Of a DNA stretch of 58,832 nucleotides, positions 15,408 to 43,012 are shown one piece after another. The stretch spans positions 1 through 58,832 of the forward strand of contig DAJR01000022.1 in NCBI GenBank assembly GCA_002496385.1, given 5' to 3'. The position numbers and the translations under genes are program-made. The notes beneath the pieces are model-generated. The model had not been told where the DNA came from. It searched no databases and was given only the letters and a program-made list of their open reading frames with translations. This DNA comes from Methanomassiliicoccales archaeon UBA147 (lineage in GTDB: Archaea; Thermoplasmatota; Thermoplasmata; SG8-5). Each line of letters begins with the position of its first letter. Position 1 is the first letter of the stretch.

Positions 15408-15520
15408 CTGTTTTCGCCGCTGGGGGCTCCAGCGGCATGTGCTTCCTGTCCTGACCGGCCAATCGACATATTTCAGAAATGCTTATATCCCTTCATTATT
15501 TACCTCGTTTGAGGATATCC

Positions 15521-17345: not shown

Positions 17346-20093
17346 TTAATTTTCCTGGCAACTTATTTTTTTTATGTGATTTTCAACATTTTCCGCAAGT
17401 TCATTAGCCCCGATTTCCTTATAATAATTCTTGGATGTCTCGAAGTAGCCAATCGCACCTTTGATATCGCCCATATCCTGATAAATAAGAGCAAGATCAT
17501 AATATGTGGTTGCAAGGTCAAATGGTATCCATTGTTGTTCTATAATTTTAATACTTTTTTGAGTTACTTCTATAGCTTTATTCCATAATTTCTTATGCCG
17601 ATAGATTATCCCAAGGCTGCGAAGAGCGCCATTGATACCCAATTCGTCATTTAATTTCTCCAAAACAAGAAGGGCTTTACTACAGAATTCTTCAGCTTTC
17701 TCAAGTTCTCCTATATTAGCTAACGCCTCTGCATAATGGAACAATGACCATCCGACCATTAATCTATTACCAATCTTTTCAGAAATTGCTTGACACTTGT
17801 TTATGGCATCTAAAGCCCGTTCCCAATCCTTCAGTCGTAGGTAGGTATCTCCTAAATTATTGTATGCTCTTGTTAATTCAGATAAATTTCCAATTTTCTC
17901 TAATTCGTTAATGCTTTTTATGTAGCATTCGATTGCCTTCTCAAATTTCCCCCAGTTGTGGTAAACATTACCCATATCTATATACGTTATCGCTATAGAA
18001 TAAGAGCCACCGGCTTTCAAGGAGTGATATATGCTCTGATTATAATGTTTCATGGCTTGGTCATTTTCTCCTTTTCTCCAGTGCAGATATCCCAGCCCCC
18101 TCTCAATTTCTCCAATGCTGGTTTGATTGTGTAATCGTTTAGCTATCTCAATAGCATTTTGATAATCTATCTCAGCTCCTTTGCAGTTACCGATAGAACG
18201 TTTTGAATGGCCAATAAAAGTAATGGCGGTCAAGATCAAATTTTCATTTTTTATTTTTTGCCCCATTATTAGTGCTTTCTCATAATATTTAATAGAATTA
18301 TTCCATTCTGAAATCTCATAAAAAAGGTTTCCCAGGCGCATATATACATTTCCTAAATCAGCATCTCTAGTATCTGATTGTTTATTTCCATGCAGGATAG
18401 TTAATGCATAATTGTAGAGTCGTATCGCCTCTTCATTCGCATACCTCTCCTTCGCCGCATCAGCCGCCTTGATGAGATATTCTCCCGCCCTCACATCCTT
18501 GGCCCAATACAAATGGTATGCTAAATCGCTCAATACCGAGTCAATGTCGTCTTTGTGGAGTTCCATGATGGTGTCGGCGACCAGCCTGTGATATTCCAGC
18601 TTCAGCTCGTCAATTATTTCTGAGTAGAGCACTTCCCTGACCTTGGCATGGTCGAACCTGAACCTCTTTTCCATGGAATGTATCAGCTTGTGCGTCTTCT
18701 CGATGTCGCTGAGATTTTTTAACAGCGCCAGCTTGTTCAGGTCCATGGTCTTGCCGACCACTTCGGTCTGGAACTCCTCCCCGACCACGGAGGCGCAATC
18801 CAGTATCTCGCGCTGGTCCTTTTTCAACCGGTCCAGGCGGCGCTTCACGACATCGTACACTTTGCTGGGGATGTCCATTTTCTCCAGGCCGGTTGTGGCT
18901 GTCCAGGTCCCTTCCTCGTCCTGCTTTATCCAGCCTTCCTCGGCTAGCAATTTCACGACTTCCAGCACGAAGAAAGGCGTGCCCTCGGTCTCTCTGAATA
19001 TTCTGTCATAAAGCTCATTCTCGAAATTGACCGTGCCCAGCGTCGTCCTGACCAGCTCCTCTGTCCCGGCCCGGTCCAGCCTGTCGAGATCAATCTTCTC
19101 CAGCAGGTCCTCCCTTGTCATGTTCTGCATCGCGGTCTCAAGCTGATGCGCCTTGCCATCCGATTGCTGGACGATATCTTCCGGCCGGTAATCGCCGACA
19201 ATGAGCACCGGATTGTTCTTGGTGTTCCTGGCAAGGTAATGAAGCAGCCCAAGTGTGCTCGGGTCCGCCCAGTGCAGGTCGTCGAGGAAAAGGAGTATTG
19301 GCTGTTCTTGCGCCAATCTCTGGATACCGAGCAAAACGTTGTCAAGCAAATTTTCTTGTCTGATCTTCGGGTCGTCCACCAGGAACTTACCGTCGTACTT
19401 ACCGCTCTTTATCAGCTTTGAGGTGATGGAATCGATGCCCTCCAGCTTTCCGAGGTCCCCGTCCCAGTCCTTGAGAACATTGCTGAAACTGAACTGAACG
19501 TCGGCAAGAACGCTTCTCATGTCGCTGACCAGGAATTCGCTGAAACTGCCTTTGGTCACAACAGCTAGGTACAGACCTTCCGATTCTTCCACCAGAATCT
19601 TGTATTCCTGGTATCCGATGCTGTTCAGCCCGCCGGTTCTGTCGACATTGTCCACCATCTGCATGGAGTCCTTGACAAAGCTTCCGACGGCTTTCAGCAT
19701 CGAGCCAAATATGTAGGGGTCCAGTCCCAATTCTTCCCTGACTGACTTTGCAATCAAAAGTCCGGCATCGTTCATAAGATATGCGGAAACGACCAATGGC
19801 GGCGGGTCGCCCGATATGAGATGGAACAACCCGGCCTCCCGAAGGGCTGATTTTATGGGCATCAATGGCTCAAGACTCTCTAAAAGGCACCGACCTTGAA
19901 TTACCTGAACGTTTTTGGATTCCGCAGCTTTAATGAGTTCTGAAACCAGCCGGGTCTTGCCGATGCCAGCTTCACCGGCGATGAAGATTGTGGAGCCCTT
20001 GCCGACAAGGGAGTTGTCCAGCGAGTGCTTGAGCTTTGTTAATTCGGTCTCACGGCCGATGAGGGCAGGCTGCTGGATGGCCAGCTCAGGCAT
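17346..20093 (-). CDS. STAND(SWACOS-like) ATPase with longin-like insert and TPR C-terminus, array copy 8 (last)
   Basis: GEAGIGKT, LFLDDLHWAD, EGTPFF, TPR helices. Start MPELAIQQ overlaps the upstream stop. Lacks the conserved W..KC tail. Confidence 0.88.
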   Translation of the reverse strand: MPELAIQQPALIGRETELTKLKHSLDNSLVGKGSTIFIAGEAGIGKTRLVSELIKAAESKNVQVIQGRCLLESLEPLMPIKSALREAGLFHLISGDPPPLVVSAYLMNDAGLLIAKSVREELGLDPYIFGSMLKAVGSFVKDSMQMVDNVDRTGGLNSIGYQEYKILVEESEGLYLAVVTKGSFSEFLVSDMRSVLADVQFSFSNVLKDWDGDLGKLEGIDSITSKLIKSGKYDGKFLVDDPKIRQENLLDNVLLGIQRLAQEQPILLFLDDLHWADPSTLGLLHYLARNTKNNPVLIVGDYRPEDIVQQSDGKAHQLETAMQNMTREDLLEKIDLDRLDRAGTEELVRTTLGTVNFENELYDRIFRETEGTPFFVLEVVKLLAEEGWIKQDEEGTWTATTGLEKMDIPSKVYDVVKRRLDRLKKDQREILDCASVVGEEFQTEVVGKTMDLNKLALLKNLSDIEKTHKLIHSMEKRFRFDHAKVREVLYSEIIDELKLEYHRLVADTIMELHKDDIDSVLSDLAYHLYWAKDVRAGEYLIKAADAAKERYANEEAIRLYNYALTILHGNKQSDTRDADLGNVYMRLGNLFYEISEWNNSIKYYEKALIMGQKIKNENLILTAITFIGHSKRSIGNCKGAEIDYQNAIEIAKRLHNQTSIGEIERGLGYLHWRKGENDQAMKHYNQSIYHSLKAGGSYSIAITYIDMGNVYHNWGKFEKAIECYIKSINELEKIGNLSELTRAYNNLGDTYLRLKDWERALDAINKCQAISEKIGNRLMVGWSLFHYAEALANIGELEKAEEFCSKALLVLEKLNDELGINGALRSLGIIYRHKKLWNKAIEVTQKSIKIIEQQWIPFDLATTYYDLALIYQDMGDIKGAIGYFETSKNYYKEIGANELAENVENHIKKISCQEN

Positions 20094-23000
20094 CGGGGAG
20101 TTCCTCCAGGGCGTCGCGGCACTTGTCAATCCAGAGCTTCCAGTTCAACTCCTGGTAAAGCTTGAGGGATTCTTCAAGATGGTCCCTGGCTTTGGCATGG
20201 TCGCCCTTGGCTTTCCAGAGGAGGCCGTACTCGTAAAATAACTTGCCCCTATCTTGTTTATGCACATAAGAACCAAATGGTGAATCATTTAATAACTTCT
20301 TAACTTTTTCAAAACATTCAATGGCTTGTTCCCATTCTTTTTTTTCCCTGAAAACCATTCCAAATATTTGATTCGATCGAATTGCTTCCCAATTTGTATC
20401 TCTTAATTTACTAGTTTCTAGAACCTTCTCAGCATTTGCAAATGCTTCATGAATATTGCCCATCTCAAGGTATACTTCTGCTAGGCCAATATATATCTCC
20501 AATAATTCCCAGTTATCTCTCTTTTCCAAACTAACATTAAGGCTTTTTTGAAGCAATTTCACAGCTTGGTTAAGTTCACCTTTTTGTTTATGCGCCATTC
20601 CGATACATGTCAATAGGAATGATTTTTCATCAGAATTTTCTTTATGCTTTGATTCTATTTGATTTAGACCTATTTTATAGTACTCGAAGGCTTTATCTAC
20701 CTCACCTAAGTTTATATGAAGATGGCCAATTGAGGATAAACTTGACTCAATTATATCTTCTATTCCAATTTTTAAAGCTATTTGATAGGACTGGGAGTAA
20801 TATGATAATGCTTTTTCTACCTCCCCCTGTAATTCGCATAGCTCGCCGTAAAACCATATAACTTGCCATGTTTGGCTTTTTATGCCCCCCTTCAAGCTAA
20901 TTTGAAGGCTTTCTTCATAACATTTTTGTGCCTGAATTAAGTCATCTCTATTTCTATTTAATATTCCAATACCTAACATAATAAATGAAATTACATTTTT
21001 ATCTCCAATTTTCTTTTTTATCGCTAAACTTTTATTATAATACTGGATTGCTTTATTCCAATTATCAGATTCTCCCCACATCGCATTTCCTCTGTTATGA
21101 AATAATAATCCAATCTCAGCGAGAGTGTCTGAAATTTCAATTTCATCTCCGATTTCTTCCCTTAATTTCAAAGCAGTTTCAAAATGCAATAGCGCTTCTT
21201 TGTATTGCTTATCTAATGGTTCGTCCGAATATGCAAAATACATACCACCAAGATTATTATGTGCACGAGCTATCTCCCTATTATCTTGTATTTTAAGTGC
21301 CATTTGTAATTCCGCATAGTATATCTCGCGTCTTTGATTCCAGCTATCTCGTGAATTGCAATAAATTCCATCTCCCTTAGTACCTAATAATCTCGCAACC
21401 TCAACACAATCTTCTCCATTTAAAAGGGCCAGGCCTTTCTCACACTCATCTTGCATAGCGTCTCTTTTATCTTGGGAACCATATGTTTTTGCTATTTTAC
21501 AATGTAATCCCGCCTTTCTTTCTAAATTAGTTTCGAATTTGATTGCATTTTGATAATTTTCTAATGCTTTGTCCGGCTCGCTGATTAGCTTGTGGATATC
21601 CCCCAATTGCTCATGCGCCCTCTTCCTCATCTCCTTATCGTCCACCACCTCCAGCGCATAATTGTAAAACCTTATCGCCTCCTCATTCGCATACTTCTCC
21701 TTCGCCGCCTCCGCCGCCTTGATGAGGTACTCCCCGGCCTTCTCATCCTTCGCCTTGTAATAATGCATGGCCAGCTCGCTCAGCACCGATTCCGGGTCGT
21801 CCTTGTGCAACTCGGCAATCGAATCCGCGACCAGCCTGTGGTATTCCACCTTCAACTCGTCGATGATCTCATCGTATAGAACAGCCCTGACCTTGGCATG
21901 ATCGAACCTGAATTTTTTCTCCATGGAATGGATTAACTTATGGGTTTTTTCGATGTCGCTGAGATTCTTTAACAGCGCCAGCTTATTCAGGTCCATGGTC
22001 TTGCCGACGATGTCGGTCCGGAACTCCTCGCCCACCACTGACGCGCAATCCAGTATCTCGCGCTGGTCCTTTTTCAACCGGTCCAGGCGGCGCTTCACGA
22101 CATCGTACACTTTGCTGGGGATGTCCATCTTATCGAGGCCGGTCGTTGCTGTCCAGGTGCCGGAATCGTCCTGCTTGATCCAGCCTTCCTCGGCCAGCAG
22201 CTTCACGACCTCCAGCACGAAGAACGGCGTGCCCTCGGTCTCCTTGTATATTTTTTCGTACAGGTCCGGACTGAAACTGCTCTTGCCCAGCGTTGTGTTG
22301 ACCAGCTCCTCAGTCCCGGCCCGGTCCAGCCTGGTCAGCTCTATCTTGCCGAGCAAATCCTCCCTGGTCATGTTCTGCATGACAACATCCAGTTGATGTG
22401 GTTTTCCGTCCGATTGCTGGACTATGTCCTCGGGCCTGTAATCCCCGACTATCAGGACTTTGTCGCTCCTTGTGTTTCTCGCGAGGTAATTCACCAGGCT
22501 CAGGGTGCTCGGGTCGGCCCATTGCAGGTCGTCGAGGAACAGCAGCAGGGGCCTGTCTGCGGACAATCTCTGAACCCCGAGCAGAACGTTATCGAATACG
22601 TTCTCCTGGCGTATCCTTGGGTCGTCCACCAAGAATTTACCGTCGTACTTACCGCTGGTAATCAGCCTGGAGATTATGGGCTTGATGCCGCTGACCTTGC
22701 CCAGGTCCCCGTCCCAACCCTTCAGGATATTGTCGAAATTGGTATGCACGTCTGCTAGGGCGTTCTTCATGTCGCCGACCAGGAATTCGCTCATGCTGCC
22801 TTTGATGACCGCTGCCAGGCTGAGGCCGCCCGATTGCTCGATCAGTATCTTGTATTCCTTGTAACCGAGAATGTTCAGGCCGCCTGGCCTTTCATCTTGC
22901 TCCACAAGGCGCATCGAGTCCCTGACGAAGCTCCCCACCGCGGTCAGCATGGAACCGAAGATGTCCGGGTCCAGGCCAAGCTCTTCTCTTTCCGCCTTGG

Positions 23001-23343
23001 CGATGGGGAGGCCGGCCTCGTTGGTCAGATACGCGGAGACAAGAAGGGGCGGCGGATCCCCGGAGATGAGGTGGAACAAGCCAGACTCCCGAAGCGCGGT
23101 CTTTATGGGCATCAGCGGCTCAAGGCTTTCGAGGAGGCATCTGCATGGGATTATCTGGGCATTCTTCGAAATAGCGGCATTGAAAAGCTCGGAAGCCAGC
23201 CGGGTCTTGCCTATCCCGGCTTCCCCGGCGATGAAGATTGTCGAACCTTTGCCTGCGATGGCATCGTCCAGGTATTGCTTCAGTTTGGTTAATTCAGCGT
23301 CGCGGCCGATGAGGGCAGGCTGGCGCAAAGCTAACTCTTCCAT
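20086..23343 (-). CDS. STAND ATPase-longin-TPR, array copy 7
   Basis: Same motifs. Start taken at MEELALRQ (GTG 23352 is an alternative). Ends WIDKCRDALEELPDA. Confidence 0.88.
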   Translation of the reverse strand: MEELALRQPALIGRDAELTKLKQYLDDAIAGKGSTIFIAGEAGIGKTRLASELFNAAISKNAQIIPCRCLLESLEPLMPIKTALRESGLFHLISGDPPPLLVSAYLTNEAGLPIAKAEREELGLDPDIFGSMLTAVGSFVRDSMRLVEQDERPGGLNILGYKEYKILIEQSGGLSLAAVIKGSMSEFLVGDMKNALADVHTNFDNILKGWDGDLGKVSGIKPIISRLITSGKYDGKFLVDDPRIRQENVFDNVLLGVQRLSADRPLLLFLDDLQWADPSTLSLVNYLARNTRSDKVLIVGDYRPEDIVQQSDGKPHQLDVVMQNMTREDLLGKIELTRLDRAGTEELVNTTLGKSSFSPDLYEKIYKETEGTPFFVLEVVKLLAEEGWIKQDDSGTWTATTGLDKMDIPSKVYDVVKRRLDRLKKDQREILDCASVVGEEFRTDIVGKTMDLNKLALLKNLSDIEKTHKLIHSMEKKFRFDHAKVRAVLYDEIIDELKVEYHRLVADSIAELHKDDPESVLSELAMHYYKAKDEKAGEYLIKAAEAAKEKYANEEAIRFYNYALEVVDDKEMRKRAHEQLGDIHKLISEPDKALENYQNAIKFETNLERKAGLHCKIAKTYGSQDKRDAMQDECEKGLALLNGEDCVEVARLLGTKGDGIYCNSRDSWNQRREIYYAELQMALKIQDNREIARAHNNLGGMYFAYSDEPLDKQYKEALLHFETALKLREEIGDEIEISDTLAEIGLLFHNRGNAMWGESDNWNKAIQYYNKSLAIKKKIGDKNVISFIMLGIGILNRNRDDLIQAQKCYEESLQISLKGGIKSQTWQVIWFYGELCELQGEVEKALSYYSQSYQIALKIGIEDIIESSLSSIGHLHINLGEVDKAFEYYKIGLNQIESKHKENSDEKSFLLTCIGMAHKQKGELNQAVKLLQKSLNVSLEKRDNWELLEIYIGLAEVYLEMGNIHEAFANAEKVLETSKLRDTNWEAIRSNQIFGMVFREKKEWEQAIECFEKVKKLLNDSPFGSYVHKQDRGKLFYEYGLLWKAKGDHAKARDHLEESLKLYQELNWKLWIDKCRDALEELPDA

Positions 23344-23474: not shown

Positions 23475-24620
23475 TTAGCCCATTTTTTTCTGGACGAATG
23501 CTTTGAACAAAGGGTGAAACAATCGGTATTTGCCTCTGGACGTTCTCAGGACAATTTCCTTTTCTACAAGCCTGGTTAGGTGCGTGCCCCTCTTCGACAT
23601 TTTTGCGCGAGACTGGATCTCAGAAAATGACAGCGTATCTTCTTTGCTCTTAGCAAAAGCAAACAATATCTTCTTCTCTTCTTCCGATGCCCGGTCCAAC
23701 ATGGGCCCGAAAATGTCGTTTCCCAGAATATCTACAATTACTGGCATGATTGCGCTAAGCTTCTTCGGGGTCAATTTTCCTTTTCCGTTCAGCTCCCGAA
23801 AGGCAGAGAAGCATACTGCTTTCAGGATGTATGGGTGGCCCTCGCTGAGGCGGTGGATTTCGGCCTGGGCTTCCTTTGATATGCTGAAATCGGAAATCTC
23901 CCTGATGGGCAATGTCATCGCTTCCGCGCTTTCCTGTTCCGTGAACTCTTCGAGAGTTATCCGGCGGAAGAACCTGGCAGTCGGAGAATATAGTTTGGCC
24001 GATGTGTCATAAAAAATCTTCTTCCCGCTGAGAATGGCCATAATTTTGCATCCGCTTCTCGGAAGCGCCTGGAAAACATTCCTGATAGTCTCGACCACCT
24101 TGAAGAGTTCCTGCTTATCCAGAAACTCCAGGTTATCGATCATTATGATGACTATCCGGTCCTTATCGGCTATGGCTTCCCACAATGATTGCAAGGTTGA
24201 TTCGAAACGTATCGGTGTGTACCCGGCATTTCCCTCGTTCTGTTCAGCGATCCGGTCCAGCCGGGGAGATTTCATCTCTCGGATGCCTCCAGCAGGCAAA
24301 CCGAGTTTGGGATATTCGCGTAATATCTGGTGGAGAAACTTCTGTACAATGGCATGAAGGACTGCATCGGATGTTTGGCCGCTTTGCACATCAATGATGA
24401 AGGAGATTGCACCGAATTCTTTTGAAGCGATTTCCTGGGCCTTCAGGAGGAGCGCGGTCTTCCCGATTCCCCACTCACCGACCACTGCGATATTCAGAGA
24501 CTTTGCATGTGAAGTGTACTTGAATGCTTCCACCATACTCTGGAGAACCTGTTTTCTTCCCGCAAAATTAGGGGGTTCGACGGGATATGCCGGCATATAT
24601 GGATTGATGGTATCGAGCAT
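23475..24620 (-). CDS. Stand-alone AAA/STAND-like ATPase with C-terminal winged helix (unrelated to array copies)
   Basis: NPY..P..FAGR, GEWGIGKT, IMIDNLE, SEGHPY, C-terminal GKYRLFHPLF wHTH-type end. Confidence 0.8.
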   Translation of the reverse strand: MLDTINPYMPAYPVEPPNFAGRKQVLQSMVEAFKYTSHAKSLNIAVVGEWGIGKTALLLKAQEIASKEFGAISFIIDVQSGQTSDAVLHAIVQKFLHQILREYPKLGLPAGGIREMKSPRLDRIAEQNEGNAGYTPIRFESTLQSLWEAIADKDRIVIIMIDNLEFLDKQELFKVVETIRNVFQALPRSGCKIMAILSGKKIFYDTSAKLYSPTARFFRRITLEEFTEQESAEAMTLPIREISDFSISKEAQAEIHRLSEGHPYILKAVCFSAFRELNGKGKLTPKKLSAIMPVIVDILGNDIFGPMLDRASEEEKKILFAFAKSKEDTLSFSEIQSRAKMSKRGTHLTRLVEKEIVLRTSRGKYRLFHPLFKAFVQKKMG

Positions 24621-24760
24621 TGCATAACCTCAAACTTTTTGCCTCGTATAGTCATGGAAAATGCACTCTGATTTATATATGTATGTACACTATGTACACT
24701 TTGTTATTTTCCTTTGTGTACACTTCGTTCGATTTGTTATCTTTTACTGCAATGGGTAAT

Positions 24761-24898
24761 TCAGTGTTCGCCCGCCTCCCCCGCGATAAAGACGGTGGAG
24801 CCCTTGCCCACCACGGCATTGTCCAGCGACTGCTTCAGCTTGGATAATTCGGCGTCGCGGCCGATGAGGGCGGGCTGGCGGATGGGGAGGTCAGTCAT
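24761..24898 (-). pseudogene. Truncated ninth array copy (45 codons), broken within Walker A
   Basis: MTDLPIRQPALIGRDAELSKLKQSLDNAVVGKGSTVFIAGEAGEH*. The ATG overlaps the stop of copy 6, and homology ends abruptly at ~24770. Confidence 0.9.
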
Positions 24899-27800
24899 TC
24901 CAGGGCCTCCAGGGCGGTGCGGCACTTGTCGGCCCAGAGCTTCATGCTGGTTTTTTCAAATACCTCCCCAGCCTTTCTAATATGCTCTTTGCCCTCTGCA
25001 CGGGCCTCCTTAGCCAAACACATAAGGCCCCAATAATAGTTTGTTTCAGCGATTTCTATAGAAGAATTTTCCTTTTCATATTGAAGGACGGCAGCTGTGA
25101 ATTTCTTTTCCGCATTTGCGTAATCCCCCTTTTCCGAGAATAGAATACCGCAGACCTCCAAGCTTCTTCCTTGGTAGTTCATATAGTTTGATTTCGTGGA
25201 GATCTCTTCTGATTTGGCACACAATATTTCGGCATCGTCAAGTTTATTCAGCCTAATCGAAATTTCTGCCATGGATATTAAAGCATTTATCTGTCCACCT
25301 ATGTACCCTTCTTTTTCACTCAAAGCTTTGGCCCTTTCATACCATTTAGCCGCAGTCTGATACTCCTCCATCTCAAGATATATTGCACCAATGTTATTGC
25401 ACGAATATGCAATGACACTGCCTACATTCATTTTCTCACGCAATTCTAGGCTCCTGTGAGCGAATTGTAATGCTTCGTCGAAATTTCCCAATTTATTGTT
25501 TATCTCTCCAAGATTGTTGTAGTTGATTGCCATAGCCTCCAAATCGCCTGTTTTTTCTGACAGGTTCTTGGCTTTCTCCAAATGCTCAAGCGCCCCTATG
25601 GAATCTCCAGCATACCAACAAATGCAACTAATGTTGGTGTGCGCGGTTGCAATTCCGTCTAGATCCCCGATTCTCTCCATAATTTCTAAGCTTCTCTGAA
25701 AATAATCCTGAGCTTGCTCTGACATACCTTTGTCCATGTGAACAAGACCTATGCAATTAAATACCGTGGCTAAGCCCCGAATATTCCCGACCTTTTTCAT
25801 TATTTCAAGGGATTTTTCATAACAGGAAAGGGCATCATCAAATTTAAACAGCCTCAGAAAAACATTGCCCAATAGAAGCATAGCCTTTCCAAATTCTTCC
25901 TCCATATCCGCCCTGTTTTTTAAGATATCAGTGCCCTTAACAATGTGCGTTAATGCTTCATCATGCTGAAATTGTCTCCAGTACAAATTTCCCTTGGCAA
26001 TGTGCAGCTTTGCATTCTCCACGGAATCTGTCTCCCCGATTAGCTTTTCGGCCATATCCAAACATTCTGCGCTCTTTAAATAATCTGGCTTATTGAGGTA
26101 AATGCCTCCCAGCTTTATTAGAATTTCAGTCTTTGTATCAACATCTTGTGTTGAATTCAGAATAATTTCATGTTGGTTGATAGCTTGGTCGCATTTCCCG
26201 GTCAGTTCATAAATATCTCCCATACTATTCCTGATTCGTGGATGCATTTGTGCTCCAACAATGCTCAGGGCATTGGTATACAGCCTTATAGCCTCCTCAT
26301 TGGCATACCTCTCCTTTGCCATTTCCGCGGCCTTGACCAGATACTCCCCAGCCCTCTCATCCTTTGCATGAAATAGATGGGCGGCCAGCTCGCTTAAAAC
26401 AGAGGCGATGTCATTCTTATGCAGTTCCAGAATTGTGTCCGCAATCAGCCTGTGATATTCCCGCCTTAGTTCTTCGCCCATGTCATTGTATAACACTTCC
26501 CTGACTTTGGCATGGTCGAATCTGTATCTGTCCTTTAAATAATGAAGCAGTTTGTGGTTTTTCTCTATCTCGCTTAGATTCTCTAGCAGCTGGAACCTAT
26601 CACGGCCCATGGCCTTGCCTATCACCTCAGAATGAAACTCCTCGCCCACAACACTGGCGCAGTCGAGTATCTTCCTCTGCTCCTTCATCAATCTATCCAG
26701 CCGCCTCTTCACGACATCATACACCTTGCTTGGGAGGTCCAGTTTATCCAACTCCTTGACCAGCGTCCATGCGCCCGAATTGTCAGGCTCGATGGCACTC
26801 TCCTCGGCCAGCAATTTCAGTATCTCCAGGACGAAGAATGGCGTGCCGTCCGTCTCTTTGTGAATCCTGTCGTAGAAGGGCGGGCCAAACCTGGCATTGC
26901 CAAGGGAGCTGTCAATTATGGCTTTGGTCGCATCCCTGCCCAGGCGCTTCAGCTCCACTTTGTCCAGCAAGTCCTCCCTGCCCATGTTCTGCATCGCCGT
27001 CTCCAGCTGGTGCGTCTGGCCGTCATAGGCCTGGACTATGTCCTCAGGGCGGTAGATCCCGAGCATCAACACGCGGTTCTTCCTAGTGTTCCGTGAAATG
27101 TAATGTAGCAAATTGAGAGTGGTTGGGTCGGCCCATTGTAGGTCGTCCAGGAACAACAGCAGCGGCTTCTCCGTTGAAGCCCTCTGAAACCCGAGCAGCA
27201 CATTGTCAAACAGGTTCTCCTGCCGTATTTTCGGGTCGTCCACCAGGAACCTGCCATCAAACTTGCCGCTGGTGATTAGGCGGGACAATATAGGTTCTAT
27301 CCCACCAACCCTTTCCAAGTCACCGTCCCATTCCTTCAGCGCAGAGCTATGTTTACATAGAATTTCTGATAGAATGCATCTCATATCGCTGACCAAAAAT
27401 TCGCTGAAACTGCCCTTGGTGACAATCGCCAGATGCAACTCTCCTGATTCTTCTATCAGTATCTTGTAATCCTTGAACCCAAGACTGTTCAGCCCGCCAG
27501 TTTGCTCAACATTGTCCATCTTTTGCATGGAATCTTTGACAAAATTGCCTACTGCGGTCAACATTGAACCGAATATGTATGGGTCCAACCCGAGCTCCTC
27601 GCGCTCATATTTGGCGATTAATAAGCCAGAATTGTTCAACAAATACGCCGACACGACCAGCGGCGGCGGGTCTCCCGAAATAAGATGGAACAATCCCGCC
27701 TCCCGCAGCGCGGTCTTCACCGGCATCAGCGGCTCTAAAGATTCCGCGAGGCACCAGCCCCGAATTACCCGGGCACCCTTCTTCTCGGCCTCATAAATTA

Positions 27801-30560: not shown

Positions 30561-33500
30561 TCTAGGGCCTCCAGGTCTTTCTGGCACCTCTCTATCCAGA
30601 ACTTCATGTGCATGCGTTCGAACTCAGCGAGGGCTTTCTGCGTGTATTCCTTCGATTTAGCCGGTTCGCCCTTGGATTTCCAGAGCTGGCCGAATTCGTA
30701 TAGCGTGATGGCGTATTCCTTTCGATCAACATTCTCAAGGATTTTCTCGGCATTCTGGAATTCAGATATCGCTTCGTCGAATTTCATTTGGCTGCATCGG
30801 ACCATACCCAATGCCCTGTGGCTCATACCTTCCTCGACCCTAGCGCCTATCTGCCTTGATAAATCCAGAGCTTCTTTTGCATTCTTTTCGGCTTGTCCAA
30901 GTTCACCAATTAAAATGCTTGCTTCAGCGATTTTTGTTTTTGAGTATGAGATTCCTGCTTTATTTCCAGCCTTGTTAAAAATTTCTAAGCTCTGGTTGAA
31001 GAACTCCAGAGCCTTATATCCATTTTCTTTCAGAAGAAATACGCAACCTAAGCGGTTTAACCCATAGGCAATAGAAATTTGAACTTTAGTAAAATTTCGC
31101 CTCTCCTGAAGTTCTTGTTCGAAATAGGTGCAGGCATCATCAAAATTTCCATTTCGCATATGAATTTCACCAATATGGTAATAACCATTGGCTATTCCAT
31201 AATGATTTTCATCTTTTAGGGCTTTTTCAATATGATTATTCAAATGCTCTGTTGCCTCTTTGGATTCATTCCTCATTTCCGCAATTTTACCAAGTGCATA
31301 ATCAATGTAGAATGGATCCATCTTTGTTCCGCGACTCTGCCATATTTCTATCATTTTTTCATGACAGTCTATTGCTTCGTCATAATTTCCTAAATCCTCT
31401 GCAATCCACGCCATTGTGTCATAACAATTCAGAACACCATCTAAATATCCAATATCATTGGAAAAGCAAAGTGCTTTGACAAGGTATTCATGTGCTTCAT
31501 CAAGAGCACCGGTTCGAAATAATACCCACCCCAACCTCCAATAATCTATCGCAGTTTTCTCTTTGTTGTCCAGTCGTATGTCGATTTCCAATTTTTTCTT
31601 TATTAAATCTATTGCGGCATTATAATTACATGAAAGATGGTAGCTTGCCGATAAGGATATGTAAGCCTGTGCAAGTTCTCTGTCATCTCCCAGTCTCTTT
31701 AATGATTCAATTATTTGATTGAATTGCTTTATTGCAGTTTCTTCGTCAATGAGTCCAACATACCTCTTTCTCATTGTTTCTCTCCGCAATAGTTTATTTT
31801 TTAATACTTCATCTGTGCAATTGACAAAGTATTTTTTGCCTTTATCTACATTTTCAAGTGCTAAGTCAGTTTTTCCTAATTCTGTGCACACATCCACAAT
31901 ACCAATGTGGGCCTGAATAATTTCACATGGTTTTGATGTATTTTCAAGTGCCATGCTGAACAACCTCATGGATTCTTCTAGGGCATACTCCTTGAATGCA
32001 TTTTCTCCAGTGAGAATGAGGAACTTCGCTGCCCTCTCGTCCCTTCCCTCGTAATAGTGATGCGCAAGCTCGCCTGCGACCTCATCACTATTGTCCTTAT
32101 GCAGCTCTGCGATGGTGTCTCCCACAACCCGATGGTACTCTCGCTTCAGCTCCTCGCTGATGCCGTTGTAGAGGACCTCGCGTATCTTTGCATGGTCGAA
32201 TTTATATTTATCCTTCAAGTAGTGGATGAGGCTGTGTGTTTTCTCTATCTTGCTCAGGTTCTCCAGCAACTGGAGTTTGTCCTGCCGGACGATTTTTCCG
32301 ACCACCTCGGACTGAAACTCATCACCTATAACGCTGGCACATTCCAGGACTTTTCTCTGTTCTTCCATCAGCTTGCCCAGGCGCCTCTTTACGACGTCAT
32401 AGATCTTAGATGGAATGTCGAGCTTTTTGATGCTGCCCACGGCTCTCCATACCCCATCGGTACCGCAGGACAGTGTTTTTTCTTCAGCCAGGAGTTTTAC
32501 AACTTCCAGCACGAAGAATGGGTTTCCCTCTGTGTCTTTGTATATCTTGGATAGGAGCTCCTTCTCTATCTTAGCGGAGCCCAGGGCGGAACCGACCATG
32601 TCCCTTGTGTGGTCCTGGTCTAGGCGAGCCAATTCTACTTTACCGATTAGGTCTTCCCTGCTCATCTTCTGCATCGTGTCAACGAGCTGGTGCGTTTTTC
32701 CATCCCAAGATTGGACCACTTCTTCAGGGCGGTAATTTCCAAGAATTAGAACGCGCTTGTCCCTTGTGTTCTTCGAGAGGAAATGAATCAGGTTGAGCGT
32801 GGTCGGATCTGACCACTGAAGGTCGTCCAGGGACAGTACGATTGGCTTCTGCGCCGATATCCGCTGGAAGCCCATCAATACATTGTCGAACAGGCTCTCC
32901 TGGCGCATCTTTGGGTCATCGATTAGGTGCTTTCCGCTGTACTTTCCGCTCATCACGAGTCTTGATACCGGCGCGTCGATACCGGCCAGTTTCTCCATGT
33001 CCCCATTCCACCCTGCCAGGACGTGTCCGAAATTCATCTGGATATTGGAAAGCGCGTTCTTCATGTCCCCGGCTAACATCTCGCTGAGGGTGCCTTTGGT
33101 AACAGCTGCCAGGAACAGCCCGTCATGCTCCTCGATGATTATCTTGTACTCCTTGTAGCCGAGGCTGTTGAGCCCGCCAGTCCTGTCGACATTGTCGATC
33201 TTCTGCATGGAATCCTTGACAAAGCTTCCCACAGCTTTCAGCATGGAGCCGAAGATGTACGGGTCCAGGCCCAGTTCCTCGCGCTCGGCCTTGGCTATGA
33301 GAAGCCCCGCGTCGTTCATCAGGTACGCCGACACTATCAGCGGCGGTGGGTCCCCCGAGATGAGGTGGAACAGCCCGGCCTCTCGGAGAGCCGATTTAAC
33401 CGGCATCAGCGGCTCCAGGCTCTCGGCAAGGCACCAGCCGCGGATTATCTGGGCGCCTTTCTTCTCGGCCTCATTAATTAGCTCAGATACGAGTCGGGTC

Positions 33501-33633
33501 TTCCCGATGCCGGCCTCACCGGCGATGAATGTAACCGAGCCTTTTCCAGCTGCTGCGTTCTCCAGGCTCTTTTTCAGTTTGTCCAGTTCCCCATCTCTGC
33601 CGATGAGGTCAGGCTGTTTCAACGATGATTCTG

Positions 33634-33637
<4 letters not shown>
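30557..33637 (-). CDS. STAND ATPase-longin-TPR, array copy 4
   Basis: Start MTESSLKQ at ATGA overlap. Walker B SLDDLQWSD, EGNPFF. TPR region related to copy 3. Confidence 0.88.
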
Positions 33638-36716
<3,079 letters not shown>

Positions 36717-36720
<4 letters not shown>

Positions 36721-39700
36721 TGCTCCAACTCCTCCAATGCCTTGCGGCACTTGTCCGCCCAGAGCTTCATGCCCATGCGTTCGAACTCGGTGAGCGCTTT
36801 GAAGAGGTGTTCTTTCGCTTGAGTGGGAGCACCCTCAAATTTGGATAGAAGCGCGTATTCGTAGAATACCCTCGATAAACGAACTTTGTCCCCCACCTCT
36901 TCGAGGATTGCCCTAGCTTTTGTAAATTCATCCGATGCGATATCCCATTTTTTCATCTCTCGATAGATCATACCCAGCACACGGTGGCTTAAGCCCTCCT
37001 CTGGTTTGGCACCAATCTCGGCAGCAACCTCTGCAGATTCTTTTGCATGTTCGAGGGCTGCCTGGGCATCGCCCTTCCCGAGTTTTACCTCTGCCAAGCC
37101 GCATAGATTGTGAATATAGAGTCGTTTTTCTCCGATTTCCAGGGAAATTTCTAAGCTATGCTCGTATAACTCCAGAGCCTTTCCCAACTCGCCCTTATAG
37201 AGGTACACTTCCCCTATATTGTTAAGCGATAGTGCAACGCCCTGCCTGCTCTCGATTTTCTCTCTTATTTTCAGGCTGTGTTCGTAGAACTCGAGCGCCC
37301 TATCTAGTTCACCACTCTCAAAGTGAACGGATCCAATGTTGTTCAGCAACATCGCAAAGCCCCACCTGTCCCCTATTTTCTCTCTTATTTTCAGGCTGCG
37401 TCCGTAGAACTCGAGCGCCCTCTCTGGCTCACCCTTCTCAGAGTGAGCGGATCCAATGTTGTTCAGAGTCCCCGCAATGCCCTGTTTGTCCCCTATTTTC
37501 TCAAAGATATCGTAGCCGCGTCTGTAAAACTCAAGCGCTCTATCTAGTTCCCCCCTCTCATAATGAACGGATCCGATGTTGTTCAGTGCCGCCGCGATGC
37601 CGTACTGGTCTTCTATCTCATCCATTACTGATAAGCTTTTTTCATAATATTGCAGGGCATGAACTAACACCCCCTTGCTTGAGTGGAAGATGCCGACTGC
37701 TCTGAGTGCGTTACCGATATCCTTTTTGTCTGCACCAACTTTTTCTGATGTCATTACAGCTTCTAAGAAACAGTGCAGAGCGTTATCATAATTTCCTTTT
37801 TTCCAATAGGTGTTCCCTTCACAGCCCATCACCCTTCCGTACTCAATTGTTCCCGCTTCAGCTAAACTCTTCGCCTCTGAGAGCACTTCGATGGCATTGT
37901 CATATTCTCCCTTCTTTTCGTGCGAATCTCCAGCTTTCCTTAACATCCTGACCTTTGTCTCTTTGTTCGCTGTTGATTTGCTCGCTCTCAGGAAGTTTTC
38001 AATGGCATTGTCATACTTGCCCATGCGTACCTGTATATCCCCCAACTTCTCAAGGACATTAACCTTCTCCTCGTCAACGAAAAACTCAAGGGCGTTTCTG
38101 TAAAACCGCAACGCTTCCTCGTTGGCGGACTTCTCTCCCGCACTGTCCCCGGCTTTTAGCAGAAATTTTCCTGCTTTCACATCCCTAGCTTCGAAATAAT
38201 GGTAGGCCAATTCGTTCACGATCTGGTTTGGATTGTCCTTGTGAATCTCAGCGATTGTGTCGGCTATCAACCTGTGGTATTCTCGTCTCAACTCTTCCCC
38301 TACGCTATTATACAGAACCTCTCTTATTTTAGAATGGTCAAATTTGTATTTGTCTTTGAAATAATGGAGCAGCTTATGGGTTTTTTCTATTTCGCTGAGA
38401 TTTTCCAATAACTGAAGTTTATTCTGGCCCATGACCTTGCCCACAACTTCGGAGTGGAACTCTTCACCAACTACGCTGGAGCATTCAAGCACCTTTCTAT
38501 GCTCCTTCATCAGTCGGTCCAAACGCCTTTTTATTACATCATAGACCTTGCTCGGAAGGTCTAGCTTATCCAAATCCTTCATCAGTGTCCAGGCACCGGC
38601 ATTGTCTCGGGTGATGACACTCTCTTCAGCCAGTAGCTTAATGACCTCCAGCACGAAGAACGGCGTGCCCTCGGTTTCTTTGTGAATTTTCTCGAAAAAG
38701 GCGGGTTCGAAGCGAGATATGGCCAGGACATTGTTTACCAGTGATTCAGTGTCTGTTTTGTCCAGACGTTTCAGGTCAAGTAAAATAAATAAATCTTCCC
38801 GGTTCATTTTCTGCATTGCCGTTTCGAGTTGATGCGCTTTTCCGTCAAATCCCAGCATGATGTCCTCTGGCCTGTATGTTCCAAGAATCAATAGCTTGTC
38901 TTTTCTGGTGTTGCGTGATAGATAATGCAGTAGGTTTAGAGTGGTGGGGTCAGCCCATTGCAGGTCGTCGATGAACAAAATTAGAGGTTTCTCTTTCGAG
39001 GCTCTTTGCAAGCCCATGAGTACATTGTCGAATAGATTCTCCTGCTTCAGTTTGGGGTCGTCCACTAGGAATTTACCGTTGTATTTACCGCAAATCATCC
39101 ATATAGAGACCGCCGTTTCGATATCCTTGACCTTGGATATTTCTCCATTCCAGGCATTAAGAACTTCGCTGAATTTTGTCAGAAATTCTTTTAGAAGACT
39201 TTTCATATCATTGACCAACATCTCGCTGAGTGCACCCTTGGTTACGCAGGCCAGATACAAGCCATTCAATTCCTCAATTAATATCTTGTATTCTTTGTAG
39301 CCGAGGCTGTTGAGGCCACCTGTCCTCTCGACATTATCCATCATTCTCATTGAGTCCTGGACAAAGCTTCCCACAGCTTTCAGCATCGAAGAGAATATGT
39401 AAGGGTCCAGGCCCAGTTCTTCTCTTTCAGCCTTTGCTATCAACAACCCAGCGTCGTTCATGAGGTATGCAGACAGCAGCAGCGGCGGCGGGTCGCCCGA
39501 AATAAGGTGGAACAATCCCGCTTCTCTAAGAGCCAATTTAACCGGCATCAACGGCTCCAGGCTCTCGGCAAGGCACCAGCCGCGAATTATCTGCGCGCCT
39601 TTCTTTTCGGCATCATTAATTAACTCAGATACAAGCCGGGTCTTTCCAATCCCTGCCTCTCCCGCTATGAATATGGTGGAGCCCTTGCCGGCGATGGCAG

Positions 39701-39779
39701 CGTCCAGGGCTTTGTCAAGCCTGGCCAGTTCAGCGTCGCGGCCGATGAGGTCAGGCTGCTGGATGGCCAGCTCTTTCAT
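36717..39779 (-). CDS. STAND ATPase-longin-TPR, array copy 2
   Basis: GEAGIGKT, LFIDDLQWAD, EGTPFF, and regular 40-aa TPR repeats (LNNIGS...ALEFY..SL.I.EKIGD). Confidence 0.9.
37201..37620 (-). repeat. 120-bp in-frame tandem repeats (about 3.5 units) encoding 40-aa TPR units
   Basis: tctcttattttcaggctg at 37261 and 37381. gtagaactcgagcgccct and ggatcc(a/g)atgttgttcag recur at 120-bp spacing. Confidence 0.85.
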
Positions 39780-42700
39780 TTCTCCAGTTCCCCCAAGCCC
39801 TTCTTACATTTCTCGATCCAGAATTCATTGTTCAACTGACCGAAGCATTGGAGGGCTTTCTCCCGGTACTCTTTCAGCTTGTCCGGGTCGCCCATGTCTT
39901 TCCAGAGGAGGGCTAATTCATAATAGAGATTACCCAAAGTGTAATTTATTCCGCCCGCAACTCGCTTTGAATGATTATCCAAGGCGATTTGCGCGGATTC
40001 GAACGATTTGATGGCAGAATCCCAATCCTTCATGGCATGATATATTTTTCCCAATACTATGTTGATTCTTCCTTTGAAATATATATCCTTATGAGACAGC
40101 TGCTCGCCGACCTCGATTGCCTTAAGGGCTTCGTCAAGGGCCTCTCCATATGTCTTTTCATCGAGATATAACTCAGCAAATGCCATATGTGAGCTGAGTT
40201 TGAGCCATATCAAATCAGATTTCTCTGCAATTTCACGGGTTTGCATATAGCAATCAAGAGCCGATGAAAAATTCTTTTTATGCCTGTAAATATGTCCCAT
40301 ACATTCAATGACGTTATAATGGGTGTTGGAAGTTGGATCTTTGGTGGTTATAAGTAAGCATTCTTTGAATATCTCTAAGGCTTCGTCATGTCTTCCATAC
40401 CTAGCTAGAATCGCCCCCCGTTCCTCCAATGTGCCTGCAAGGCGCAACTCATCAAGATAATCTTTTGCGATTCTTATACTTTCATCTATGCACTCCAATG
40501 CTTTTATAACTTCTCCTTTTTTCTCCAATATATTGGACAAACCAAGTAGTGTTTGGGCCTCCAATAGGTGATTGCCAATGCTTCTAGCGATATCTATGCC
40601 TTCAAGGAAATATTTCAAGGATTCGTCAAGATTTTTCTCATGCCAGGCTAAACACCACATTGACTTAGTAAGGCCTGTTTTGTCACCAATCTTTCTTTTT
40701 ATTTCAAGGTTTCTGCTTAAGCATTTTTTTGATTCTGCTATGTGCTGCTCCTCGTCTGCCGAATATATCTCTCCGTAATTCCTGTGTGAAACCGCTAGAA
40801 GAAGCAGCGTTTCAGATATTTCATAAAGGTTGCCTACTTTTTCCCTCAATTCCAGGGATTTGCTTAACATCTCGATTTCTTTTTCTAAACCCTCTTTGTC
40901 GAACTTTTCTTCATATGTGACTCCGATGTTGTAATACGCCCTAGCCATCTCTGCCAGATCATTTGCTTCTTCGGCGATCCGCAGGGCGTCTTGTGCATCC
41001 TCCCGGCATTTGTCCGTCTTGTTCGTCAGCATCTCAGCCCAGGCCTTGACATTGAGCAGTCTAGCTTGCTGGATGCATCTATCCTCTCCCAGGGTGGCTA
41101 TTGCCTTGTCGCACTCTACAACTGACTCGGCAAATCTGCCAAACTTGTTGTACATGTCGGCGACCTTCCTGTGCAGGTCGGCTTTCTTTCTGCCGTCCGT
41201 CTCTTTTTCAATCAAGGAGTAGTAGCATTTGAGTGCATTATCTAGGTCGCTGGTGAGCGAGTAGATGTCCCCCAGCCTCTCATTGACAATTTTTATTTTC
41301 TCATCATCCTCAAGAACCGTCAGGGCTTTGTTGTAATACCTGATGGCCTCGTCATTCGCATATGCTCCCATTGCGGCATCGGCGGATTTGATTAAATATT
41401 CCGCTGCCTTCGCGTCTTTCGCCTCATAATAATGGTGGGCAAGCGCATTCAGGGCTTCATCCGGATTGTCCCTGTGCAGCTCGGCAATAGTGTCCGCCAC
41501 AAGCTTATGGTACTCCTGCTTCAGTTCGTCCATTATCCCGTTGTACAGCACCTCTCTGATCTTTGCATGGTCGAACTTGTATTTTTTCTGATAAGAGTGA
41601 ATCAGCCGGTGCGTTTTTTCAACATCGCTCAGATTCTCAAGGAGCTGGATTTTATTGAGGCCAACGACCTTGCCCACGACGTCCGACTGAAATTCCTCCC
41701 CGACGACCGATGCGCAGTCCAGGATCTTCTTCTGCTCCTTCATCAGGCGGTCCAGCCGCCGCTTGATAACATCGTAGACCTTTGACGGAATGTCCATCTT
41801 CTCCAGGCCCGCGGTGGCGTTCCAGACTCCCTTCTTGTCCTGTTTGATCCAGCCCTCCTCGGCCAGCAATTTAACGACTTCCAGCACGAAGAACGGCGTG
41901 CCCTCGGTCTCCCTGAATATTCTGTCATAAAGCTCGTTCTCGAAATTGACCGTGCCCAGCGTCGTCCTGACCAGGTCCTCGGTTCCTTTCCTGTCCAGCC
42001 TGTCGAGCTCTATCTTCTCCAGCAGGTCCTCCCTTGTCATGTTCTGCATCGCGGTCTCAAGCTGATGCGCCTTGCCATCCGATTGCTGGACTATGTCCTC
42101 CGGCCTGTAATCGCCGACAATGAGCACCGGATTGTTCTTGGTGTTCCTGGCAAGGTAATGAAGCAGTCCCAGTGTGCTGGGGTCCGCCCAGTGCAGGTCG
42201 TCGAGGAACAGCAACAATGACCTATCTGCGGACAATCTCTGGATTCCCATCAGCACATTGTCGAACACGTTCTCCTGGCGTATCCTGGGGTCGTCCACCA
42301 GGAACTTGCCGTCGTACTTGCCGCTGCTAATCAATCTGGAGATTATGGGCTTGATGCCGCTGACCTTGTCCAGGTCCCCGTCCCATTCCTTCAGCATGTG
42401 GCCGTGGCTCATCTGGACCTCTGCGAGTATGTTTTTCATGTCCCCGACCAGGAATTCACTGAGGCTTCCTTTTGTCACGGCGGCCAGGAATATACCCGCG
42501 GATTCTTCGACGATGATTTTGTACTCCTGGTATCCGAGTATGTTGATGCCGCCGGTTCTGTCAACATTGTCAATTTTATGCATGGAATCCTTGACGAAGT
42601 TGCCGACGCCCTTGAGCATCCCGGCAAAGATGTCCGGGTCCAGGCCGAGCTGCTCCCTCTCCGCCTTGGCCAACAGGAGACCGGCGTCATTGGTCATGTA

Positions 42701-43012
42701 TGCCGAGACCACCAGCGGCGGCGGGTCGCCCGAGATGAGATGGAACAATCCTGCTTCTCTGAGAGCCGATTTAACCGGCATGAGCGGCTCCAGGCTCTCC
42801 AGGAGGCATCTGCCGGTTATTATCTGGGCGTTCTTGGTCTCGACCTCTTTCATCAGTTCCGAAACCAGCCGGGTTTTCCCGATGCCCGCCTCCCCTGCGA
42901 TGAAGACGGTCGAGCCCCTACCGGCGGTCGCATTCTCAAATGCCTGTTTCAGCTTATTCAGATCTTCATTGCGCCCGATAAGTTCCGGCTGATGAAGCGC
43001 CAACCCTCCCAT
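39776..43012 (-). CDS. STAND ATPase-longin-TPR, array copy 1 (head)
   Basis: GEAGIGKT, LFLDDLHWAD, EGTPFF, TPRs. Ends WIEKCKKGLGELEK. Confidence 0.9.
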   Translation of the reverse strand: MGGLALHQPELIGRNEDLNKLKQAFENATAGRGSTVFIAGEAGIGKTRLVSELMKEVETKNAQIITGRCLLESLEPLMPVKSALREAGLFHLISGDPPPLVVSAYMTNDAGLLLAKAEREQLGLDPDIFAGMLKGVGNFVKDSMHKIDNVDRTGGINILGYQEYKIIVEESAGIFLAAVTKGSLSEFLVGDMKNILAEVQMSHGHMLKEWDGDLDKVSGIKPIISRLISSGKYDGKFLVDDPRIRQENVFDNVLMGIQRLSADRSLLLFLDDLHWADPSTLGLLHYLARNTKNNPVLIVGDYRPEDIVQQSDGKAHQLETAMQNMTREDLLEKIELDRLDRKGTEDLVRTTLGTVNFENELYDRIFRETEGTPFFVLEVVKLLAEEGWIKQDKKGVWNATAGLEKMDIPSKVYDVIKRRLDRLMKEQKKILDCASVVGEEFQSDVVGKVVGLNKIQLLENLSDVEKTHRLIHSYQKKYKFDHAKIREVLYNGIMDELKQEYHKLVADTIAELHRDNPDEALNALAHHYYEAKDAKAAEYLIKSADAAMGAYANDEAIRYYNKALTVLEDDEKIKIVNERLGDIYSLTSDLDNALKCYYSLIEKETDGRKKADLHRKVADMYNKFGRFAESVVECDKAIATLGEDRCIQQARLLNVKAWAEMLTNKTDKCREDAQDALRIAEEANDLAEMARAYYNIGVTYEEKFDKEGLEKEIEMLSKSLELREKVGNLYEISETLLLLAVSHRNYGEIYSADEEQHIAESKKCLSRNLEIKRKIGDKTGLTKSMWCLAWHEKNLDESLKYFLEGIDIARSIGNHLLEAQTLLGLSNILEKKGEVIKALECIDESIRIAKDYLDELRLAGTLEERGAILARYGRHDEALEIFKECLLITTKDPTSNTHYNVIECMGHIYRHKKNFSSALDCYMQTREIAEKSDLIWLKLSSHMAFAELYLDEKTYGEALDEALKAIEVGEQLSHKDIYFKGRINIVLGKIYHAMKDWDSAIKSFESAQIALDNHSKRVAGGINYTLGNLYYELALLWKDMGDPDKLKEYREKALQCFGQLNNEFWIEKCKKGLGELEK

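Follow-up and report, generated by a model that had tools for sequence, protein, structure and literature searches.

The window analyzed here is positions 1-58,832 of contig DAJR01000022.1 from the genome of the Methanomassiliicoccales archaeon UBA147. Positions 17346-43012 encode a tandem array of STAND (signal transduction ATPases that have numerous domains) proteins, in which a nucleotide-binding oligomerization domain (NOD) is followed by tetratricopeptide repeats (TPRs). The open reading frames (ORFs) of this region comprise eight intact paralogues of 868-1085 amino acids and a 45-amino acid stub, all on the minus strand, and they run in the order copies 1 to 6, stub, break, copies 7 and 8. 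Each NOD is interrupted by an insert whose predicted fold, longin/Roadblock, points to small GTPases as a possible output of these proteins. The genes of the array, and those that interrupt it, are as follows.

39776-43012, minus strand: copy 1, 1078 amino acids; STAND (AAA_16 NOD with insert) plus TPRs; insert at 42308-42730
36717-39779, minus strand: copy 2, 1020 amino acids; insert at 39075-39497; ATGA overlap with copy 1
33634-36720, minus strand: copy 3, 1028 amino acids; the start codon is the ATG within the ATGA overlap; insert at 36016-36438; the copy used for structure models
30557-33637, minus strand: copy 4, 1026 amino acids; insert at 32933-33355
27954-30560, minus strand: copy 5, 868 amino acids; insert at 29856-30278
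24895-27957, minus strand: copy 6, 1020 amino acids; insert at 27253-27675
24761-24898, minus strand: stub, the 45-amino acid N-terminal remnant of a ninth copy, ending inside Walker A (GEAGEH, then stop); ATGA-coupled to copy 6
24621-24760, minus strand: AT-rich spacer of 140 bp with three GTGTACA motifs and a TATA-like CATATATAAA, read by eye, 5' of the 381-amino acid ATPase gene
23475-24620, minus strand: gene for a 381-amino acid P-loop ATPase, AAA_16/ATPase_2/KAP with a C-terminal winged helix-turn-helix; Orc1/Cdc6-like and unrelated to the STAND copies
20086-23343, minus strand: copy 7, 1085 amino acids; insert at 22639-23061
17346-20093, minus strand: copy 8, 915 amino acids; the start codon is the ATG within the 8-bp ATGCCTGA overlap; insert at 19389-19811

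The starts of the copies were taken as the ATGs that sit in the overlaps. With these starts, motif positions are the same in all eight proteins: LIGR begins at residue 11, preceded by 10 residues in every copy, and is followed by GEAGIGKT (Walker A) at 40, [LS][LI]DDL[QH]W[AS]D (Walker B) at 268 and G[NT]PFF at 371, with a Walker A to Walker B spacing of 220 residues throughout. Six ATGA stop/start overlaps and the 8-bp overlap of copies 7 and 8 could be read directly. Each junction has GGAG or GGAGG 4-16 nucleotides 5' of the start, embedded in the codons of a conserved C-terminal ...ALEELE tail. A sequence-only reading of this DNA had described eight STAND-TPR paralogues with intact Walker A, Walker B and G[NT]PFF motifs, joined by these same overlaps, and the ORFs, motif positions and junctions all bear it out. 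It had also described the array as translationally coupled. This description holds for copies 1-6 with the stub and for copies 7-8, but the 381-amino acid ATPase gene, which is single copy in the genome, breaks the chain between the stub and copy 7 together with its spacers, the second being a gap of 131 bp before copy 7.

All eight proteins matched the Pfam family AAA_16 at 76-88 bits (cut-off 32.6), from profile position 1-2, and in seven of the eight copies the match falls in two pieces that are parted by the insert. TPR_12, TPR_1 and TPR_2 matched in all copies, TPR_MalT scored above its cut-off in copies 2, 6, 7 and 8, and no Pfam family besides AAA_16 and the TPRs was found in the eight proteins. 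The best NCBIfam match was to the NOD of TIGR03903 (TOMM kinase/cyclase fusion), from Walker B to the winged helix, at 174-200 bits against a cut-off of 705. An AlphaFold2 model of copy 3 residues 1-540 (39-sequence alignment, pLDDT 80) runs through beta1, the P-loop, alpha1, beta2, an excursion, alpha2 and beta3 (Walker B) into helical and winged-helix domains. Its best Foldseek matches in the PDB were MalT (8bob_C), RuvBL1/2 and the Pyrococcus STAND-TPR protein PH0952 (6mfv_A). On the basis of these Pfam, NCBIfam and Foldseek matches, the family is a MalT/SWACOS-type STAND, the two clades not being separable here.

STAND proteins, like NLR proteins (which combine nucleotide binding with leucine-rich repeats), are normally described as a sensor, a switch and a terminal effector. 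In the array, Pfam, NCBIfam and PADLOC searches and the motif positions place no domain before the NOD, where only the 10 residues ahead of LIGR remain, and none after the TPRs. STANDs open their NOD, exchange ADP for ATP and multimerize, and as a general rule they bear one or more effector domains at a terminus (PMC6468293); the array proteins depart from this rule. The proposal that the copies have no N-terminal effector domain was upheld by profile search, which found AAA_16 and TPRs only and an effector at neither end. An upstream ORF as the source of the effector was also considered, and none was found. The divergent ORF 5' of copy 1 (43111-43653, plus strand; 180-200 amino acids) was discarded as a candidate, since no family matched it, the genome has no second copy of it and it is a core gene, kept at 89% identity and beside the genes for a major facilitator superfamily (MFS) protein and XPD in same-genus genomes that do not have the array. 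By eye, a stretch of its product resembling D...(I)EVK is reminiscent of PD-(D/E)xK nucleases; family searches gave no support for a nuclease, the best match being CdiI_4 at E 0.008, below cut-off.

The insert of about 130 amino acids (residues ~95-235) lies in the nucleotide-binding domain after beta2, between Walker A and Walker B, and judged by invariant columns it is as conserved as the ATPase core. No meaningful match came from searches with the insert alone, whether by Pfam (E up to 10), phmmer or a profile against PDB sequences, and Foldseek on the whole 540-residue model returned ATPase matches only; the insert was then modeled alone. The insert-only model (alignment A2; pLDDT 81, pTM 0.73) has the topology alpha-beta-beta-alpha-beta-beta-beta-alpha, which DSSP assignments of both the 1-540 and the insert-only models support. 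All 50 listed Foldseek matches of this model in the PDB are longin/Roadblock proteins (E 1.4e-5 to 7e-4; TM up to 0.69 per target). They include TRAPP subunits (2j3t_C, 1.4e-5; Bet5/Trs23), AP sigma subunits, LAMTOR (6b9x_B, LAMTOR/MP1-p14), Mon1-Ccz1 (5ldd), dynein LC7, Streptomyces Robl (3kye) and Asgard Roadblock2 (9jq8). The insert is accordingly predicted by modeling to have a longin/Roadblock fold, and domains of this kind are established platforms for small GTPases (PMC3747258, PMC4316618). No Pfam family except Robl_LC7 hit two or more sequences of the domain alignment, and its matches were all below threshold: they came from 3 of the 23 members, a free-standing homologue (17.8 bits, E 0.0028) and, on contig C28, a STAND paralogue's insert (16.8 bits).

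In Thermoplasmatota, both a close subfamily (at least 50% identity) and a distant one (~30%) carry the insert. Bacterial and Bathyarchaeia homologues align over ~410-430 amino acids instead of 530 and thus lack it. The domain is mobile and occurs both alone and in other architectures. Homologues outside STANDs in the same genome comprise a 174-amino acid zinc-ribbon protein, a membrane protein that bears zinc ribbons, a 1033-amino acid surface protein in its cytoplasmic tail, a DUF835-X-TPR protein and two copies in a 1532-amino acid coiled-coil protein. A profile search with the domain returned 5812 representative clusters, which include STANDs with the domain at ~70-240 and many other architectures. 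The searchable literature yielded no account of a STAND with a longin/Roadblock insert, an absence in one library that is not proof of novelty.

Two Ras-like GTPase genes and a related small ORF lie at the 3' end of the array.

16355-17236, minus strand: 293-amino acid Ras/Roc-family GTPase; G1 GDSAVGKT, G3 DVIG, G4 NKLD; ~110-amino acid C-terminal extension
16084-16362, plus strand: 92-amino acid ORF homologous to the C-terminal extension of long GTPases (~280-290 amino acids)
15479-16072, plus strand: short Ras-family GTPase, 183-197 amino acids; G1-G5 intact; convergent with the 293-amino acid GTPase gene

The genome as a whole (2.0 Mb, 86% complete) contains ~20 genes of the STAND family and 13 Ras-like GTPase genes. 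The gene for the 1532-amino acid protein, which carries two insert-type domains, has a Ras-like GTPase gene as its immediate neighbor in all eight genomes for which context was available, down to 36% identity (G000, contig C58:7369-12885; G002, G003, G005, G008, G010, G012 and G020). Another GTPase gene is adjoined by the gene for a membrane protein that ends in an insert-type domain. Among the STANDs, insert-bearing members have a GTPase gene within ~300 bp at three of seven species-level loci and in five of 40 one-per-genome 20-kb regions, where a density of roughly ten GTPase genes in 2 Mb predicts ~0.5. Loci with 1.5-kb flanks were too short for downstream neighbors to be judged, and the 20-kb regions were used for this count. 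With this window counted, adjacency to a GTPase gene is seen at 9 of 48 loci in all, the gene being placed upstream and co-directional, downstream and co-directional, or convergent. When neighboring ORFs of 47 loci were clustered, the Ras-like GTPase was the only recurrent non-self neighbor, the other recurrent clusters being STANDs and antisense shadow ORFs. STAND and GTPase copy numbers rise together across 31 genomes (rho 0.68, uncorrected for phylogeny). Thus, genomic linkage to GTPases is strong for the domain in the 1532-amino acid protein and recurrent, but in a minority of loci, for the STANDs. In genome G008, a STAND family gene is divergently adjacent to the pair formed by the 1532-amino acid protein and GTPase genes.

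The reading that we favor, and hold to be modestly probable, is that the array proteins are TPR-sensor STAND switches whose output passes through the insert to small GTPases. The divergent TPRs of each copy would sense a different ligand, and binding would lift autoinhibition and lead to ADP/ATP exchange and oligomerization, as in other STANDs. Oligomerization might then gather the inserts, which should be surface exposed if the position after beta2 is taken as an edge of the nucleotide-binding domain, into dimer-like platforms. Platforms of the Roadblock type could bind and regulate Ras-like GTPases, whether as a GAP (GTPase-activating protein), a GEF (exchange factor for guanine nucleotides) or a scaffold, and candidate partners are the 13 such GTPases of the genome, two of which are encoded in the same genomic island at the array's 3' end. 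The array would then be a receptor bank that feeds a small-GTPase switch. The sequence-only reading had reasoned that output must come from the internal insert or from a partner in trans. This idea has gained substance, since the insert has the predicted fold of a GTPase platform and Ras-like GTPases are recurrent neighbors. The analogy that it drew with sensor/helper NLR pairs and its suggested hetero-oligomers gained no such support. Protein anatomy, the fold, position and conservation of the insert, the missing effectors, the family's distribution, the genomic linkage and the island were observed; ligand diversity, oligomerization, physical docking of a GTPase with its direction, and the biological role are what we infer.

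Several observations weigh against this reading. Sequence matches to Pfam Robl_LC7 (PF03259) fall below its gathering score and are absent altogether for the window copies, and longin/Roadblock-like folds also serve functions that do not involve GTPases. GTPase docking is deduced from fold and genomic linkage. At the window itself, the 293-amino acid GTPase gene lies on the same strand as copy 8, 109 bp downstream, and has its own TATA-like ACATATAAG; because of this gap and this element, the arrangement does not imply co-transcription. No GTPase gene is adjacent at 39 of the 48 loci, and the copy-number correlation is confounded by phylogeny. Lastly, the nearest relatives of the 293-amino acid GTPase (~41-43% identity) adjoin other genes in the genomes where they occur, for example that of a P-type ATPase in G004.

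Among described systems, the array proteins share with MalT and PH0952 (8bob, 6mfv; PMC6468293, PMC10427625) the nucleotide-binding, helical and winged-helix domains, the GxP motif, the arm and the TPR sensor. In contrast, MalT has a C-terminal LuxR helix-turn-helix effector and PH0952 an N-terminal ArsR-like effector, whereas the array proteins have neither, and only the array proteins have a longin/Roadblock domain within the nucleotide-binding domain. SWACOS proteins fused to an adenylate cyclase or Ser/Thr kinase (TIGR03903) provide the best NOD profile match, but the array proteins are without the cyclase or kinase, carry the insert and score far under the family cut-off. The nearest functional analogies are MglB-MglA, the actinobacterial conservon pair CvnB-CvnD and Ragulator-Rag. 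In these, as in Mon1-Ccz1 and TRAPP (PMC4316618, PMC3747258), a longin/Roadblock module is genomically linked to Ras-like GTPases. They differ in that the Roadblock or longin domain of MglB, the conservons, Ragulator and the longin GEFs occurs either as a small protein of its own or within a non-ATPase complex, whereas in the array it sits within a STAND P-loop domain. No small free Roadblock protein of the MglA/MglB or conservon type is encoded beside the GTPases of the window, and the genome's only two canonical Robl_LC7 proteins both lie elsewhere. The nearest architectural analogy is RuvBL1/RuvBL2, which also hold a foreign globular domain at the equivalent site of the ATPase fold, between Walker A and B; they belong to another AAA+ clade, have an OB-fold insert, form hexameric rings and act in chromatin remodeling.

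The array family thus breaks the rule of the terminal effector, in that what seems to be its output module has a GTPase-docking fold and sits within the ATPase. If Ras-like GTPases are indeed engaged by the insert, two major classes of molecular switch would be connected in archaea, partners would be supplied for many orphan archaeal small GTPases, and there would be a prokaryotic precedent for longin/Roadblock platforms under nucleotide control. A bolder proposal, which we put forward only tentatively, is a two-switch pathway of Thermoplasmatota in which STAND receptors act directly on Ras-like GTPases through a built-in platform. Ligand-driven oligomerization of the STAND would take the part that Ragulator, TRAPP or Mon1-Ccz1 play for Rag and Rab GTPases of eukaryotes, and the array would be a diversifying receptor bank, possibly antiviral.

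The array and both GTPase genes belong to a genomic island of ~27.9 kb (about 15180-43050), which also contains the 92-amino acid ORF and the 381-amino acid ATPase gene and is bordered by a tRNA gene.

15105-15179, plus strand: tRNA-Thr(TGT), the proximal edge of the island

Two genomes of the same genus (G002 and G007) have AIM24, tRNA-Thr, the 180-amino acid core gene, MFS and XPD, with ~350 bp between the tRNA and the core gene and no island. At the same site, G004 has genes for a Ras-like GTPase and for two P-type cation ATPases, alongside unknown genes. Because its contents differ in this way among genomes, the tRNA-Thr site is a variable hotspot. A classical integrated element was considered and rejected, as no att-like repeat of the tRNA-Thr 3' end occurs at the far edge of the island. 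The 5' region of the tRNA-Thr gene is itself perfectly duplicated over 34 bp (14971-15004 and 15093-15126), ~120 bp upstream of the tRNA gene.

The array is a lineage-specific tandem expansion, to eight intact copies and one truncated copy, of a Thermoplasmatota STAND family. Its members are 62-78% identical to one another over the N-terminal 560 amino acids and 19-47% identical in their TPR halves. Nucleotide identity is mosaic: copies 1 and 8, at opposite ends of the array, are 96-97% identical over ~180 nucleotides, copies 7 and 8 are 89-91% identical over the next ~180, and copies 3 and 4 are 98% identical over their first 90. To judge from the sequences, this mosaic is the signature of gene conversion between copies that appears to be still ongoing. 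NLR-cluster-style evolution, with tandem duplication, a core homogenized by gene conversion and divergent sensors, is therefore also seen in a 2-Mb archaeal genome. Plant NLR clusters resemble the array in their tandem paralogues, conserved NOD, diverging repeat sensors and exchange between copies. The likeness is one of analogy only: the array is archaeal and operon-like, with overlapping stop and start codons, and has no coiled-coil (CC) or TIR domain.

Most genomes of the order have the family, in 1-17 copies, and a word-indexed search returned more than 2300 proteins, each with no annotation beyond 'tetratricopeptide repeat protein'. In G035, G098, G148 and G075 and on contig C6 of the present genome, two or three members stand in tandem. 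No other eight-gene array was seen among ~180 genomes, a negative limited by fragmented contigs and a scoring cap. A recurrent tandem pair, with its members ~3 kb apart, combines a 'close' (55-62%) and a 'distant' (31-34%) member (G019:C17, G003:C144, G008:C79 and G002:C12) and might be a fixed two-receptor unit.

The array could also be an antiviral cluster of NLR-like receptors, in which divergent TPRs would read different viral proteins, the NOD would be homogenized by gene conversion and a toxic effector would act in trans. Such a role is compatible with output through a GTPase. The conserved NOD with its highly divergent sensors, gene conversion between copies, a strain-variable island at a tRNA hotspot and a family expanded to ~20 genes in a 2.0-Mb genome are what it would lead one to expect, and STANDs are established phage sensors (10.64898/2026.01.04.697583). 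Avs proteins, in particular, share the combination of an NTPase with a repeat sensor, diversified sensors and a variable genomic island; they differ in their N-terminal effector (nuclease, protease, TIR, sirtuin and others), which the array does not have, just as it has no PADLOC match to a defense system and no defense-gene context. PADLOC matched no defense-system model in the array proteins besides generic TPR models and gave otherwise sub-significant matches. Judged by N-terminal effector and by match to a curated defense model, the array proteins are not Avs. No effector domain was found, no nuclease, protease, TIR or similar gene recurs as a neighbor across 47 loci, the flanks within the window hold no known defense genes, and the 1-17 copies in most genomes of the order also fit cellular signaling. 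A role in defense is thus possible, with no direct support for one of the Avs type, and we regard the antiviral cluster as rather unlikely.

Alternatively, the insert could be an internal regulatory or ligand-binding element, such as an autoinhibitory lid or a dimerization handle, with the proteins acting as ATP-dependent scaffolds through their TPRs and the GTPase neighbors a coincidence in genomes rich in both families. RuvBL1/2, among the top Foldseek matches of the NOD model, set a precedent, for the domain between their Walker A and B serves to regulate the ATPase and to bind clients. The low share of loci with an adjacent GTPase gene (9 of 48) also fits, and with 13 GTPase and ~20 STAND genes in the genome some chance adjacency is expected. 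Yet STAND genes lie immediately beside GTPase genes about ten times as often as expected by chance, a Ras-like GTPase gene accompanies the homologous domain outside STANDs in eight of eight genomes, and every one of the 50 structural matches listed is a GTPase-platform protein. We consider a purely internal element improbable and retain output to small GTPases as the preferred reading.

The array could, finally, be an artifact of assembly, and we compared it with three other public assemblies. These probably come from the same or related samples and are thus a test of assembly rather than of biology. The ENA contig ERZ27315072 (186.6 kb) is 100% identical over window positions 10086-49779 and the JGI contig 3300001580 (46.7 kb) over 12223-49779, so that both span the whole array and its flanks; they agree in order and gene sizes, including the stub, the ATPase and both GTPase genes. 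The contig ERZ27315071 (4.6 kb) is 100% identical over copy 2 and its junctions. The remapping check that the sequence-only reading had called for found its counterpart in these assemblies, in which the array is identical over the parts covered and, in the two long contigs, the copy number unchanged. Mis-assembly is unlikely, and although the source is a short-read metagenome-assembled genome and stretches of 86-98% identity are common to the copies, it is hardly credible that duplicated or chimeric copies of fewer real genes make up the array, given that the longest exact repeat between copies is 102 bp, that the copies differ by 22-38% in the conserved half of the protein and by more than 50% in the TPR half, that all eight frames are intact, and that three assemblies from different pipelines have identical order and sequence where they overlap.

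The overlaps and Shine-Dalgarno (SD)-like motifs fit coupled translation of copies 1-6 and of copies 7-8, and make stoichiometric co-expression of the copies plausible. A candidate archaeal promoter for the unit of copies 1-6 lies 5' of copy 1.

43033-43042, minus strand: TATA-like TTTTTTTATA, 21-30 nucleotides 5' of the copy 1 ATG

Its distance from the ATG would fit a short-leader or leaderless transcript. Separate AT-rich, TATA-like 5' regions precede the 381-amino acid ATPase gene and the 293-amino acid GTPase gene. All of these TATA-like elements were read by eye and are tentative assignments, a sigma-70 promoter scanner being unsuitable for an archaeon. The array probably forms at least two transcription units, since it is interrupted by the ATPase gene, which brings an AT-rich upstream region of its own, and two or three or more are expected for the locus. 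The stub, the AT-rich DNA and the ATPase gene together look like an insertion or replacement event within the array.

Two copies stand out from the others. In copy 5, residues ~542-704 (28449-28937) form a unique segment of ~160 amino acids, not of TPR type, in place of the first TPRs; it had no Pfam match, and neither the rest of the genome nor the loci collected for comparison contained a homologue. Copy 8, the last gene of the array, is the only one without the conserved W.DKCR..LEEL tail (its C-terminus is encoded at 17346-17420). At the other junctions, the codons of this tail supply the SD-like GGAGG and the overlapping start.

The short GTPase gene with the 92-amino acid ORF and the long GTPase gene look like a split and a fused version of one arrangement. 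The 92-amino acid ORF matched contigs C58 and C37 in tblastn searches (E 3e-9 and 5e-9, respectively) and the 293-amino acid GTPase in pairwise comparison (E 5e-4). Long and short GTPase genes adjoin four times in the genome: in this window, on contig C51 and twice on C37.

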